Shown here piece by piece: positions 4,223-53,765 of a stretch of 64,000 nt of DNA. How positions within the stretch are numbered: the stretch's first letter is position 1; the number at the start of each line of letters is the position of its first letter. Both the position numbers and the translations under genes were made by a program. This DNA is from an uncultured Prevotellaceae bacterium (GTDB lineage Bacteria > Bacteroidota > Bacteroidia > Bacteroidales > Bacteroidaceae): NCBI GenBank assembly GCA_902762325.1, contig CACWNV010000020.1, positions 23,523 through 87,522 on the forward strand. The letters run 5' to 3'. The notes below the pieces were generated by a model. It was given only the letters and a program-made list of their open reading frames with translations, searched no databases and was not told the DNA's origin.

Positions 4223-4254
4223 AAATAAATTCAGCAAGCTAACGGCTTAGATAG

Positions 4255-4327
4255 TGGTACCTCCAGGAATCGAACCGGGGACACACGGATTTTCAGTCCG
4301 ATGCTCTACCAACTGAGCTAAGGCACC
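4255..4327 (-). tRNA. tRNA-Phe (anticodon GAA)
   Basis: Minus-strand read GGTGCCTTAGCTCAGTTGGTAGAGCATCGGACTGAAAATCCG...GGTTCGATTCC...AGGTACCA. The cloverleaf folds by eye; anticodon loop CUGAAAA; no encoded CCA. Confidence 0.9.
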
Positions 4328-4346
4328 CTTTAATCTTATTGCGGTG

Positions 4347-4354
4347 CAAAGATA
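4347..4354 (-). promoter_or_regulatory. -7 box TAtcTTTG for tRNA-Phe
   Basis: Plus-strand CAAAGATA is TATCTTTG on the minus strand, about 20 nt upstream of the tRNA 5' end. Confidence 0.5.
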
Positions 4355-4418
4355 CGGATTTTTATGCTAATCCACAAATTTTTCTGTAAAAAAATGCACG
4401 TTTTTCATTTTTTTGCTG

Positions 4419-4426
4419 TACCTTTG
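4419..4426 (+). promoter_or_regulatory. -7 box TAccTTTG for tRNA-Pro
   Basis: TACCTTTGCA, the same extended motif as upstream of tRNA-Glu, 31 nt before the tRNA 5' end. Confidence 0.5.
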
Positions 4427-4457
4427 CACCCGCAAAAGCGAAAAGCTCCTTGCGGAG

Positions 4458-4530
4458 CGGGATGTAGCGCAGTTGGTAGCGCACTACGTTCGGGACGTAG
4501 GGGTCGGGCGTTCGAGTCGCCTCATCCCGA
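4458..4530 (+). tRNA. tRNA-Pro (anticodon CGG)
   Basis: CGGGATGTAGCGCAGTTGGTAGCGCACTACGTTCGGGACGTAG...GGTTCGAGTC...CATCCCGA. 7-bp acceptor stem, anticodon loop UUCGGGA. Confidence 0.88.
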
Positions 4531-4535
4531 CTTTT

Positions 4536-5897: not shown

Positions 5898-6155
5898 ATG
5901 GAAGAAATGGTTTTAGAATGCCCAACATTGGTAACTGATATGAAGAAGAAAGTGAAGGATATTCAGATGGCAATATCCTGGCGTGATTTCGCCAACACTT
6001 ATTTTCAGCGTTCATCCTCATGGTTCTATCACAAGATGGACGGTATAGACGGAAATGGTGGTGTAGGCGGATTCAGCAAAGAAGAAGCCGAGCAGATGCG
6101 TGGTGCTTTGATAGACTTATCTAATCGCATTCGCAGGGCTGCAGAGAATATTTAG
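5898..6155 (+). CDS. Small protein resembling the DUF5053-type proteins of Bacteroidales mobile/phage regions
   Basis: 85 aa; ISWRDFANTYFQRSSSWFYHKMDGIDGNGGVGGFSKEEAEQMRGALIDLSNRIRRAAENI matches my memory of that family (needs an HMM check). Confidence 0.5.
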   Translation: MEEMVLECPTLVTDMKKKVKDIQMAISWRDFANTYFQRSSSWFYHKMDGIDGNGGVGGFSKEEAEQMRGALIDLSNRIRRAAENI

Positions 6156-6276
6156 GTGAGACCTTCTTTTGTGTTATTTTTGTCAATTATTCTTGTGAGA
6201 TGGATTACAGAATAGAGTTTGATGAAAAATGGGATAGATTATCTGTGTATAATAACATCAAACCGTAAGTTGAAAT

Positions 6277-6680
6277 ATTGTCAAGAAATATTCGAATTTT
6301 GAGCCCAAAAAACAGGGGGTATTGCTCACGAAAGAGTCATTCGGTCGAAAAAACGCCATTTTTTGATGTTTTTCGTAATTCACTGATTGACATATAGTTA
6401 CACGGATTTACAACTGTAAACGGGCGGTTTACAAAAAATGAATTTGCCAAAGGTATCGTTTTGGTGCGCGAAAGGTAAGGTTTCGTCGTGTGAAAGGTTA
6501 TGTTTGAGGCGGTGAAACATGGTCTTTGGCGCGGTCAAAGGTAAGGTATGGGGGTGAGAAACCTAAGCTTTCGCAAAATCAGGAATGAAGAATGATGAGC
6601 GAAGAAGTGGTTTTTACAGATTTTAACTTCTCTTTCATCACTTTTCGCCGACAAGTTTTTGTCAATATATTTGGTAAAAT
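6277..6680 (+). repeat. Copy 1 of a ~400-bp interspersed non-coding element
   Basis: Aligns by eye along its whole length with 32021-32425 and 53361-53765 (shared blocks TATTCGAATTTT, GTTACACGG, TTTGCCAAAGGTA, GTTTCGTCGTGTGAAAGGT, ATGTTTGAGGCG, GAATGAAG, TTTTGTCAA). Confidence 0.85.
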
Positions 6681-31822: not shown

Positions 31823-32020
31823 GTTTTTTCTTTGCTTTCTTTCAGCTTTCTTTCTTTAAATTGCAAATTTAGCATAAGTTTTTTAAAATACGGCTTTTTT
31901 GGACAAAAATGTTCCTAAAAATATTCTTTTAGTTGCATTTTCGTGCTTTATCTCCTCAATAGACAACATCTAAGGATGAATTTCTTCTTTTTTGACTCAT
32001 AAAGAGCCGCAAGTAATAGA

Positions 32021-32425
32021 ATTGTCAAGATTTATTCGAATTTTAGCCCCAAATTAAGGCCATCTGAACGAACGAAAAGTTTCTCGGTTGAAAATAACGC
32101 GATTTTTGAGGCTTTTTGTAAAGCGTTGATTGGCAGACGGTTACACGGATGTTAATCTGTAATCGGTTGGTTTGCATAAAATGGATTTGCCAAAGGTATC
32201 GTTTCGCTGCGCCAAAGACCATGTTTCGTCGTGTGAAAGGTCATGTTTGAGGCGGTGAAACATGGTCTTTGGTGCGCTCAAAGCTTAGGTTTGGCGGTGC
32301 GAAAGCTGAGCTTTCCCAAAATTAGGAATGAAGTATGAAGAGTGAAGAATCATGTTTTACACAATTTAACATCTCTTTCACCACTTTTTCCCAACAAGTT
32401 TTTGTCAAGATTATTGACGGTAATT
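32021..32425 (+). repeat. Copy 2 of the ~400-bp interspersed non-coding element (upstream of mraZ)
   Basis: Same block order and orientation as 6277-6680 and 53361-53765; contains a perfect 16-bp hairpin stem, 32212-32227 / 32257-32272. Confidence 0.85.
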
Positions 32426-32677
32426 CGTCACTTAATTGGTAAATTGTTGTACCCCAATATCGGGATATCGCCTCTTTCTGAGAGCAAATGTTTACATGCT
32501 CGAAAGAACAAATAACGAAGTATTTTGATAAAACCGATGATAAAACAAATGCTTTCTCAAGAACTACAGGAATAAACCTGAATAGTCCGTTTATTCATAA
32601 TTCTTTACAGTCTGTATGTAACCCATAAGATGACAGATTAATTTTTATCAATTTTTTCCTCTTTTTTTAGAATTTTT

Positions 32678-32707
32678 GTGGGGAATTGTGGGGGATTGTG
32701 GAATAAA
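32678..32707 (+). promoter_or_regulatory. MraZ operator: three GTGGG-type repeats at 10-bp phasing
   Basis: GTGGGGAATT GTGGGGGATT GTGGAATAAA; matches the known MraZ box architecture (direct GTGG[GT] repeats, 10-bp spacing) upstream of mraZ. Confidence 0.7.
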
Positions 32708-32712
32708 ATATG

Positions 32713-32720
32713 TATCTTTG
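32713..32720 (+). promoter_or_regulatory. dcw cluster promoter -7 box TAtcTTTG
   Basis: Exact TAnnTTTG match, 5 nt after the third MraZ box and 30 nt before the mraZ ATG. Confidence 0.5.
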
Positions 32721-45864: not shown

Positions 45865-47298
45865 ATGCCAAAGGATTTTATTGTAGCTATTGAACTCGGC
45901 TCATCCAAGATGACCGGAATCGCAGGAAAGAAGAATCTCGACGGCAGCATCTCCGTGCTGGCTGTTGTCAGAGAGGACTCCACATCTTGCATCCGCAAAG
46001 GTGTGGTCTATAATATTGACAAAACCGTACTCTGTCTGACCAATATCATCAATAAGTTGGAGACAGCCCTCAAGACAAAGATTGCCCAAGTATATGTGGG
46101 TGTAGGAGGACAAAGCATTCGAAGCATGAAGAATGTCATCATCAAGGACTTACCTGCAGGTACTATCGTCAATCAGGAGATGATTAACGAACTGGAAGAC
46201 ACCAACCGCAGCATGTCTTACACAGACCTGGAGATTCTTGATGCCGCCACACAGGAGTACAAGGTTGACTCTCAATACCAGCTCGACCCTGTTGGCATCC
46301 AGTGCTCTCGTCTCGAAGGTAATTACCTCAATATTCTTTGGCGCAAGTCGTTCTATCGCAACCTCAACAAGTGCTTCGAGAATGCCGGCATCCGTATTGC
46401 CGAGCTGTATCTCGCTCCGATGGCTTTGGCTGACAGCATCCTGACAGAAGCAGAAAAGCGCTCTGGCTGCGTGCTCGTCGACCTTGGAGCAGACACCACC
46501 ACCGTTTCGGTTTATTACAAGAACATCCTTCGCCACCTTGCTGTCATCCCTCTGGGAGGCAACAACATCACAAAAGACATCGCTACCATGCAGATGGAGG
46601 AAAAGGAGGCCGAGGCTATCAAGCTTAAATACGGATGTGCCTATACTGACAGCAACGCCATTGACAACACTCTGGAATTGAAGATTGATGACGACCGCAA
46701 GATCGAGAGCCGCAAGCTTATCGACATCATCGAAGGACGTCTGGAGGAAATCATTGAGAACGTGCGCTATCAGGTTCCCAGTGAGTATCTCGACAAGCTC
46801 ATCGGCGGCATCATCCTCACCGGTGGAGGTTCGAACATGAAGGAAATCGAGACAGCTTTCCGCAACTACACACATATCTCCAAGATCAGAGTGGCTAAGT
46901 TCGTGACTCAGACCATCAACTCCAAGAATGCTGACATCAACGCTCACGATGGTACGATGAACACCATTCTCGGCCTGCTGGAGAAGGGCGACTACAACTG
47001 TGCAGGCGAAGACATCACCAACGACCTCTTCAATGCTGGCCAGGAGCCCACTCGTCCAACCCGCGTCAACGGTGGCAATCCTCGTCCGGGCGTGATCCCG
47101 ACAGAGGCAGAGAGAAAGGCTGCTGCTGAAGAGGAGGCACGTAAGAAGAAGGAAAAGGAAGAAGAGGAAGCTCGCAAGAAGAAGGAGAAGGAAGAGGAGG
47201 AAGCTCGCATTGCCAAGGAAAAGCGCGAGAACAACCTGCTCAACAAGATCTGGAAGAGTGCCAAGAAAATCGGCGAGAAACTGATAGTGGAAGAATAA
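45865..47298 (+). CDS. ftsA: Cell division protein FtsA with a repeat-expanded C-terminal linker
   Basis: Actin-fold motifs (IELGSSKM, VDLGADTT, ILTGGGS); C-terminal amphipathic helix LLNKIWKSAKKIGEKL. Confidence 0.92.
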   Translation: MPKDFIVAIELGSSKMTGIAGKKNLDGSISVLAVVREDSTSCIRKGVVYNIDKTVLCLTNIINKLETALKTKIAQVYVGVGGQSIRSMKNVIIKDLPAGTIVNQEMINELEDTNRSMSYTDLEILDAATQEYKVDSQYQLDPVGIQCSRLEGNYLNILWRKSFYRNLNKCFENAGIRIAELYLAPMALADSILTEAEKRSGCVLVDLGADTTTVSVYYKNILRHLAVIPLGGNNITKDIATMQMEEKEAEAIKLKYGCAYTDSNAIDNTLELKIDDDRKIESRKLIDIIEGRLEEIIENVRYQVPSEYLDKLIGGIILTGGGSNMKEIETAFRNYTHISKIRVAKFVTQTINSKNADINAHDGTMNTILGLLEKGDYNCAGEDITNDLFNAGQEPTRPTRVNGGNPRPGVIPTEAERKAAAEEEARKKKEKEEEEARKKKEKEEEEARIAKEKRENNLLNKIWKSAKKIGEKLIVEE

Positions 47299-52878: not shown

Positions 52879-53300
52879 CGCAACGGAAGAAATAACGTAG
52901 GCATTATATTTGGGGTTGTGCCGTAACGGAAGAAATGCCAGAGGCATTAGACAATGGTAGCCAGCCATACAGAAACGCCCTTGGGTGTTTCGAAATGGCT
53001 GGTATTGGATTGCCCCCAATAATATAAGCCTGCCCTTGGGTAGGCGACATGAGCGGCTCTTGTCCCTTACCTAGCGGCAAGGTTCCGGATGTGTGGTCCA
53101 TCTTTACCAGCCATTTCGCCGTACCCATAGGCACGGCTGTATGGCTGGCTACCTTTGTCTGATGCCTATCGGCATCCTTTCCTTACTAACTGCCCCTTGT
53201 CTGATGCCTCTGGCATCCTCTTTGCAAACGGCCTAACTGCATCCTCTCCTTGCTAACCGCCCCCTGTATGCTGCCAACGGCATCTTCTTTACTGACTATC
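52879..53300. repeat. Nested inverted-repeat complex built from hairpin-containing units (~33-45 nt; conserved 20-nt core)
   Basis: Left arm 52935-53004 vs reverse complement of 53105-53176: GGTAGCCAGCCATACAG 17/17, CGAAATGGCTGGTA 14/14. The unit core TTGTCTRATGCC-N3/4-GGCAT is present 2x on the left (as its complement) and 3x on the right. Confidence 0.8.
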
Positions 53301-53360: not shown

Positions 53361-53765
53361 ATTTGTAAAGGAATATTCGAATTTTGACCCAAAAAAACAG
53401 GGGGTGCTGATCACGAAAGGGTCATTCGGTCGAAAAAACGTCGTTTTTTGACGTTTTTGGTAATTCGTTGACTGACAGACGGTTACACGGTTATTTATCT
53501 GTAATCTAACGGTTTACAAAATACATATTTGCCAAAGGTAAGGTTTCGCTGCGCGAAAGGTTATGTTTCGTCGTGTGAAAGGTGATGTTTGAGGCGATGA
53601 AACATAACCTTTGGTGCGGTCAAAGCTAAGCTTTCGCGATGCGAGAGCTATGCTCTCGCAAAATGAAGAATGAAGAGTGAAGAGTGAAGAATCGATTTTT
53701 ACAAAAATTAACCTCTATTTCATCACTTTTCCCCGACAAACTTTTGTCAACATAATTGACAACGA
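53361..53765 (+). repeat. Copy 3 of the ~400-bp interspersed non-coding element
   Basis: Same block order and orientation as copies 1 and 2; 14-bp hairpin stem 53556-53569 / 53599-53612. Confidence 0.85.

Follow-up and report, generated by a model that had tools for sequence, protein, structure and literature searches.

A six-unit array of phased A/T tracts within a dispersed intergenic repeat of a rumen Prevotella lineage

The closest described system to the repeat considered here appears to be BrickBuilt, a MITE of Porphyromonas gingivalis. BrickBuilt elements of this Bacteroidales species are strictly intergenic, occur in tens of copies and consist of a leader, units of 23 nt in tandem and a tail; the number of monomers ranges from 1 to 22.8 and the length from 84 to 991 nt, the terminal inverted repeats are of the IS5 type (GAGACCTTTGCA) and there are some target duplications (PMC4596501). 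Segments of these elements show promoter activity in both directions (PMC4596501). The BOX, RUP and SPRITE repeats of pneumococci have been judged parasitic, with an old proliferation and a low present rate of transposition (PMC3049150). In enterobacteria, REP sequences and BIMEs are intergenic, alternating imperfect palindromes that bind gyrase and IHF, and BIME-2 elements serve as strong gyrase sites (PMC6379681; PMC3333891). The gyrase motif spans 130 bp and has two-fold symmetry and a 10.75-bp phasing of A/T versus G/C (PMC6379681).

The array described here occupies positions 32190-32323 of a 64,000-nt stretch of DNA from an uncultured Prevotellaceae bacterium (the window, meaning the whole stretch analysed). 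It is an internal module, the middle third, of a non-coding intergenic direct repeat 399-401 bp long, which is present in three copies in the window (Table 1). Searched with a profile constructed from these copies, the window yields full matches at exactly three places, each on the + strand. The favoured reading, held with slightly more than even confidence, is that the array is the core of a new, lineage-restricted family of dispersed intergenic repeats and is a probable DNA-level binding or bending module; the specific mechanism of the array is put forward with less confidence than this overall picture.

Further copies were collected from JGI metagenome contigs using an exact 19-base pattern of unit 3, followed by a profile search and alignment. 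The 84 stretches matched were in rumen contigs, the majority from one sample series, and gave 67 different full-length copies of 397-401 bp, with flanks that diverge sharply on both sides. The boundaries of the repeat were placed at the point of flank divergence in the alignment of 58-67 copies. Removal of copies at least 97% alike left 58 copies for the alignment; their mean pairwise identity is 79% (minimum 69%) and hardly any indels separate them. According to the clustering of flanks, the copies are distributed over at least about 49 different genomic sites.

The repeat is organised as a leader of ~170 bp beginning with TTTGTCAAGAWWTATT, six units of 22 bp and a tail of ~95 bp. The leader of copy 2 includes a hairpin consisting of an A-run, a GC-core and a T-run, together with the conserved blocks TATTCGAATTTTG, GGTTACACGG and GGTTTRCA. 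The tail comprises, in this order, a purine-rich block that exists as two length-matched cassettes, a pyrimidine-rich block partly complementary to it and a terminal hairpin, GACAA-GTTT-TTGTC; the purine-rich block found in copy 2 is replaced in other copies by a cassette of equal length, GGCGGAAGGAGGAATTAGGAAGGAGGAAG. Both ends of the repeat carry a common direct motif, TTTGTCAAGAWWTATT, the right-end version of which is TTGTCAAGATTATTGAC, and TTGTCAAGATTATT at the right end of copy 2 is a repetition of the left-end motif. Another form of the right end, CCCGACAA-GTTT-TTGTCGGG followed by ATTTTT, has the shape of an intrinsic terminator on the + strand and was counted by hand in about 20 of the 58 copies. 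No conserved ORF longer than 44 codons was found in the repeat in a coding-potential check.

Table 1. Positions in the window of the three copies of the repeat and of the parts of copy 2
Feature	Position	Strand	Description	Basis
Copy 1	6276..6675 (array 6447-6580)	+	Downstream of DUF5053 gene; abuts the terminator of a convergent gene	
Copy 2	32020..32418	+	Between acyltransferase gene (-) and mraZ (+)	
Leader, copy 2	32020..32189	+	Starts TTGTCAAGATTTATT (32022-32036)	Conservation profile
Array, copy 2	32190..32323	+	Six 22-bp units	
Purine-rich block, copy 2	32324..32351	+	Degenerate 7-nt repeats (GAATGAA)	
Pyrimidine-rich block, copy 2	32366..32392	+	Conserved, TTAAC-TCTCTTTCAYCACTTTTCCCC	
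Right end, copy 2	32393..32418	+	Hairpin (G/A)ACAA-GTTT-TTGTC, then TTGTCAAGATTATT (32402-32415)	
Copy 3	53361..53760 (array 53532-53665)	+	Between gyrB/parE-like gene (+) and a convergent 460-aa gene	

The first-pass annotation of this DNA had described six mini-palindromic units of ~22 bp, and both this description and the sequence quoted for it are correct: the unit starts are exactly 22 bp apart, with AAAG, or AAAC in unit 4, beginning at 32192, 32214, 32236, 32258, 32280 and 32302 in copy 2. A pattern of two successive units, AAAS-N5-STTT-N9-AAAS-N5-STTT, matches 12 times in the window, always on the + strand, and gives 0 matches in 100 dinucleotide shuffles. Its matches are confined to three arrays (6449-6527, 32192-32314 and 53534-53634), which bears out the claim that the array is common to copies 1, 2 and 3. 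Among the three window copies, TRF reports the 22-bp period in copy 3 only (53534-53590, 2.6 copies, 80% matches, score 65), the units of the others being too degenerate. Loss of the periodicity in a larger alignment had been set beforehand as the refuting outcome; the 22-bp register is in fact kept in 58/58 non-identical metagenome copies, each with six units and no indels, and the length of the array is 132-134 bp. The view of the units as tandem repeats is right with regard to the 22-bp period, but they are not simple direct repeats, as the array alternates between A3 and T3 tracts at 11-bp steps, with variable 5-nt cores and G+C-rich spacers in between.

Because of this alternation, dyad centres occur at 11-bp intervals throughout the array, the best being at alignment columns 240 and 229. 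In a profile search the array is matched by its own reverse complement (E about 1e-8), and the profile of the repeat hits each array on the reverse strand as well, so that each array is globally palindromic. The A3/T3 columns are invariant across the 58 copies and the unit cores are not; the invariance of unit 3 is partly an artefact of the 19-base unit-3 pattern used for collecting the copies. The cores are drawn from a small vocabulary that includes the reverse-complement pairs CTAAG/CTTAG, ACCAT/ATGGT and GTTAT/ATAAC, and they are interchanged between copies. Within the array the AAA/TTT tracts are strongly periodic at 11 bp; A/T tracts of the leader and tail show a weaker period of 10.5-11.5 bp, for which p in single copies ranges from 0.16 to below 0.001.

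Differences between copies are modular and mosaic rather than scattered point changes. Mutual information is due mainly to whole cassettes, at alignment columns 33-52 and 303-340, which exist in two forms and are freely combined, and the alternative cassettes are length-matched. When 11 strains are compared at the orthologous copy-2 site, the leader and units 1-4 hardly vary; units 5-6 and the purine-rich block vary in clustered tracts, the latter being hypervariable. The values of pi at this site are 0.009 for the leader, 0.047 for the array and 0.067 for the tail, compared with 0.004-0.023 for unique intergenic flanks and 0.004-0.009 for neighbouring genes. In strain L005 (1753-2151), units 5-6 and the purine-rich block are represented by the alternative cassette, unlike in L001-L010 at the same site. 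Such tract-clustered diversity is the mark of gene conversion, and the L005 cassette is direct evidence of conversion between dispersed copies. Changes between strains are evenly spread at the copy-3 site, so no fixed hot spot is claimed. Three truncated copies are also present (L029, L061 and L053): two stop after unit 4 or 5, and one starts in the spacer that separates unit 1 from unit 2.

Within the collections searched, the repeat appears to be restricted to one uncultured rumen Prevotella lineage. The 19-base unit-3 pattern has 0 matches in 185,579 GTDB representative genomes, and the tail pattern has 5 matches there, which fall in unrelated phyla and are compatible with chance. The exact unit-3 pattern also has 0 matches in IMG/VR, and BLAST searches of plasmids (PLSDB) and phages (INPHARED) gave 0 matches. 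Proteins from rumen-type samples that bear the label MAG Prevotella sp. share 99-100% identity with the RsmH encoded beside copy 2. Copy 2 was found in 11/11 strains examined and also in a lineage with 94-95% RsmH identity, the contigs of which begin inside the right end of the repeat. In a species with 76% RsmH identity, the repeat is absent upstream of mraZ; the intergenic region is shorter and unrelated, and conservation is limited to the mraZ operator and promoter. Copy 3 occurs in each of the four strains found, with length differences due to other small repeats. There are no clean empty sites at the copy-2 and copy-3 loci among close strains, every strain being filled.

The region just upstream of mraZ in the window (32676-32719) contains 2.6 direct repeats of TTGTGGGGAA with a 10-bp period, followed by TATCTTTG, and looks like an MraZ operator with a Bacteroidetes -7 box. 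The GTGGGG repeats upstream of mraZ are kept in the species with 76% RsmH identity, unlike the remaining intergenic region.

All copies are located outside called ORFs, and their orientation with respect to neighbouring genes is mixed. The neighbours are acyltransferase, mraZ-rsmH-ftsL-PBP, DUF5053, sigma-70-like, gyrB/parE-like and GH95 genes; recO is another neighbouring gene, and the neighbours are of the housekeeping type, including the dcw cluster. No rep, par, transposase or integrase genes are present near the examined copies, in agreement with the earlier remark that rep and par genes are missing from the vicinity. Only ordinary genes separate full copies from solo right-end fragments in L049 and L059, where an autonomous element had been sought. 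GC skew provides no usable replication direction.

The end sequences contain no terminal inverted repeats beyond a weak 8-of-10 match, GTCAAnAA, and a scan of boundary offsets showed no consistent target-site duplication of 2-9 nt. The BrickBuilt/IS5 terminal-repeat pattern was matched 7 times versus 6.5 expected, with 0 matches at element ends. Mobility of the repeat can only be inferred, since such terminal repeats and duplications are lacking and no autonomous partner or transposase is adjacent. Copies on one contig are always co-oriented: 3/3 in the window, 2/2 on contig Ga0247611_10001453 (L014, L019) and 2/2 on L040. The cases are few, but this would fit a strand-biased mechanism of insertion or selection.

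Other repeats occur close to the copies. A second family, palindromic and about 264-280 bp long, has inverted arms of 82 nt and ends like GCCAGAGGCATTAGACAATGGTAGCCAGCCATACAG; it is represented at 52923-53186 of the window and is also found in the flanks of L091, L026, L036 and others. About half of the copies of the ~400-bp repeat abut a member of this family, on either side and in either orientation. Copy 3 adjoins other repeat families, and a 67-bp tandem repeat (1.9 copies, 53164-53290) is situated just upstream of it; in L091, a related array (period ~64 bp) is found on the right-hand side of the ~400-bp repeat. In strains L097 and L098, a 324-bp insertion splits the hairpin GATGCCTC|TGGCATC between window positions 53217 and 53218, and a 28-bp segment of L097-L099 is missing from the window at about 53305. 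Upstream of copy 1, divergent tRNA-Phe and tRNA-Pro genes (4254-4531 and 5898-6155) are followed by small ORFs, including that of the DUF5053 protein; this region is possibly what is left of an integrated element. A 33-bp repeat at 47128-47223 (2.9 copies, GAAGAGGAAGCTCGCAAGAAGAAGGAAAAGGAA), in the region of the dcw/fts genes, probably encodes a repetitive charged linker.

The dispersed-repeat reading is supported by the many unrelated sites, mosaic cassettes, gene conversion, truncated copies, nesting and orthologous absence. Like BrickBuilt, the repeat is found in Bacteroidales, is intergenic and numbers tens of copies, is built of a leader, units (23 nt in BrickBuilt, 22 bp here) and a tail, includes partial copies, has a narrow host range and contains promoter-like segments in both orientations. 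In contrast to BrickBuilt, it has a constant number of six units and a length of 399-401 bp and lacks GAGACCTTTGCA-type ends and target duplications; there is no evident sequence similarity between the two. With BOX, RUP and SPRITE it shares modularity, restriction to a species, intergenic location and extensive potential for secondary structure, and the copies found here are stable among strains. BOX elements (boxA-boxB(n)-boxC), however, vary in the number of boxB modules, which is fixed in the case of the Prevotella units, and lineage and sequences are unrelated. The likeness to REP and BIME lies in clustered imperfect palindromes of alternating orientation in intergenic regions, with dyads every 11 bp; the difference is that the array lacks a GTAG-headed REP hairpin. 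To our knowledge, nothing REP/BIME-like has been described in Bacteroidota. The best reading is that this is a previously undescribed family of the familiar BOX/BrickBuilt/BIME-like kind, and its behaviour is presumably also that of BOX, BrickBuilt and BIME elements, that is, largely selfish or neutral.

The main rival, though an unlikely one, is a family of sRNA genes or other structured RNAs. Each ~400-bp copy would then be an insulated transcription unit: the leader hairpin would stop upstream transcription, and a promoter just before unit 1 would give a transcript of roughly 215 nt (an estimate from alignment columns) that contains units 1-6 and the purine/pyrimidine stem and stops at the terminal hairpin. 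Binding of a protein or of target RNAs would fall to the repeated hairpins or to the variable purine-rich block. The predicted folds of the + strand are indeed strong, with -69.2 kcal/mol (z = -6.75) for the RNA of 32185-32360 in copy 2 and -133 kcal/mol (z = -6.9) for the whole of copy 3, and in 58/58 copies the + strand folds more stably than the - strand. This advantage, however, is mostly compositional, since the excess over shuffles is -25.0 kcal/mol for the + strand and -20.0 kcal/mol for the - strand. In the rod model of the fold, unit 1 pairs with unit 5 and unit 2 with unit 4, unit 3 is apical, unit 6 forms a hairpin and the purine-rich and pyrimidine-rich blocks form a stem. Covariation across the 58 copies does not support the rod: 83.6% of cells are paired in the model and 83.6% in partner shuffles, with scores of 0.097 and 0.099, respectively. 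Block permutation gave no dependence between the cores of units 2 and 4 (p = 0.84) or of units 1 and 5 (p = 0.97), and unit-centred hairpins are paired in 70.9% of cells versus 70.6% after shuffling. Spacer-centred hairpins are marginal; their signal comes from the unit 5/6 hairpin, where some double changes count in favour of an RNA (p about 0.013), and is attributable to units 5 and 6 being adjacent and hence co-inherited. The RNAalifold consensus is weak (covariation term -0.7). G-U pairs are more frequent than A-C pairs, by 661 to 158 cells, yet by only 27 to 18 column pairs, a mild hint in favour of the + strand.

As for signals of transcription, a -7-like octamer, nnAATTTG, at alignment column 169 could serve the proposed RNA; it is exact in 9/58 copies and has at most one mismatch in 33/58, and no exact promoter is conserved across the 58 copies. 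The terminator-like right end is in favour of a transcript in a minority of copies, but the U-tract ending is missing from most. A sigma-70 promoter and terminator scan of copy 2, which is uninformative for Bacteroidota, found no terminator. Only tRNAs were recovered with Rfam 15 at the gathering threshold, and only spurious matches to miRNA hairpins at E up to 10. An RNA role retains some probability because of the + strand stability, the excess of G-U pairs and the terminator-like ends of some copies. A constraint on spacing or bending of DNA is preferred to an RNA fold because of the invariant phased tracts, the 11-bp dyads, the length-matched cassettes and the absence of covariation.

The near-absolute conservation of length and unit number is odd for a decaying selfish repeat, and hints at a host-level or structural function. 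One such function, considered rather improbable, is that of a length-locked nucleoprotein module, in which each dispersed array would offer DNA gyrase or a nucleoid-associated protein a strong wrapping site. The repeat would then be a functional Bacteroidota counterpart of BIME-2, with the leader and tail setting the spacing. If true, this would account for the invariant length, the constant number of units and the phasing of tracts with free intervening sequence. The array resembles the BIME-2 gyrase motif in its length of 132-134 bp, dyad symmetry and ~11-bp phasing, a likeness that is a lead and not a test; it differs in that its periodicity continues through the centre and there are several equivalent dyad centres.

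Somewhat less probable still is an array of -7 boxes, TAnnTTTG in both directions, that fires or titrates RNA polymerase bidirectionally, as for BrickBuilt. Bidirectional promoter activity has been reported for BrickBuilt segments (PMC4596501). On the + strand of the Prevotella array, exact TAnnTTTG is present in unit 3 of 25/58 copies and unit 5 of 15/58; on the - strand, it is present in unit 1 of 23/58 and unit 5 of 26/58. The reverse -7 box CAAAGGTA (the reverse of TAnnTTTG) noticed in the first-pass annotation thus exists, but in unit 1 it is limited to these 23 copies. The summed counts amount to ~1.7 octamers per copy versus a rough chance estimate of ~0.1 per array; this enrichment leaves the proposed titration of RNA polymerase weak, as none of the octamers is conserved in all 58 copies. 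The octamers are treated as a by-product, since the AAAG...TTTG frame combined with TA-containing cores yields matches trivially. In Bacteroidetes promoters, the -33 element TTTG is situated about 20 nt upstream of the -7 box, and the 22-bp period of the array puts the preceding TTTG/TTTC at the wrong distance.

Plasmid and phage iterons and parC-type centromeres are direct repeats with units of 17-22 bp at a single locus beside rep or par. The array resembles them in unit length and in having several sites, six dyad-symmetric ones phased on one helical face, but the suggestion of an iteron or partition site binding a Rep or ParB/ParR-type protein is hardly credible, as the array is a module of a ~400-bp repeat dispersed over about 45-49 or more chromosomal sites, not one locus per replicon (three copies in 64 kb), its units are palindromic and alternating, its neighbours are housekeeping genes (dcw cluster, gyrB/parE-like gene, GH95, recO) with no partner rep or par gene, and no plasmid, phage or viral contig is similar to it (PLSDB, INPHARED, IMG/VR).

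Of the functions suggested earlier for the array, that of a multi-site protein-binding region is the most plausible, and the array is most likely a phased, dyad-symmetric DNA platform for a protein. On the favoured reading, that of a dispersed repeat with a DNA-level module, the family would have spread in the past, and its copies would now be homogenised by recombination and rarely move. The array would work at the level of DNA: its twelve invariant A3/T3 tracts, phased every 11 bp, would amount to six 13-mers of dyad symmetry (AAAG-N5-STTT), all on the same helical face, with cores that are free to vary and spacers rich in G+C. Such a bendable platform could permit the cooperative binding of a putative dimeric protein, candidates for which are the protein that once mobilised the element and a nucleoid-associated or topology protein.

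If this reading is correct, the repeat adds a new lineage-restricted family to the dispersed repeats of bacteria, in a major rumen genus. Short-read assemblies break at the copies, as in the case of contigs L106 and L107, which begin inside the repeat, and gene conversion between loci uses the copies as substrates; one copy is located directly upstream of the mraZ/dcw operon. Should the array be a wrapping site instead, the elements would help to organise the supercoiling domains of Prevotella. A fixed size of ~400 bp at 79% mean identity, with six units and phased tracts, makes the family a good test of a selfish versus a protein-wrapping or topology role.
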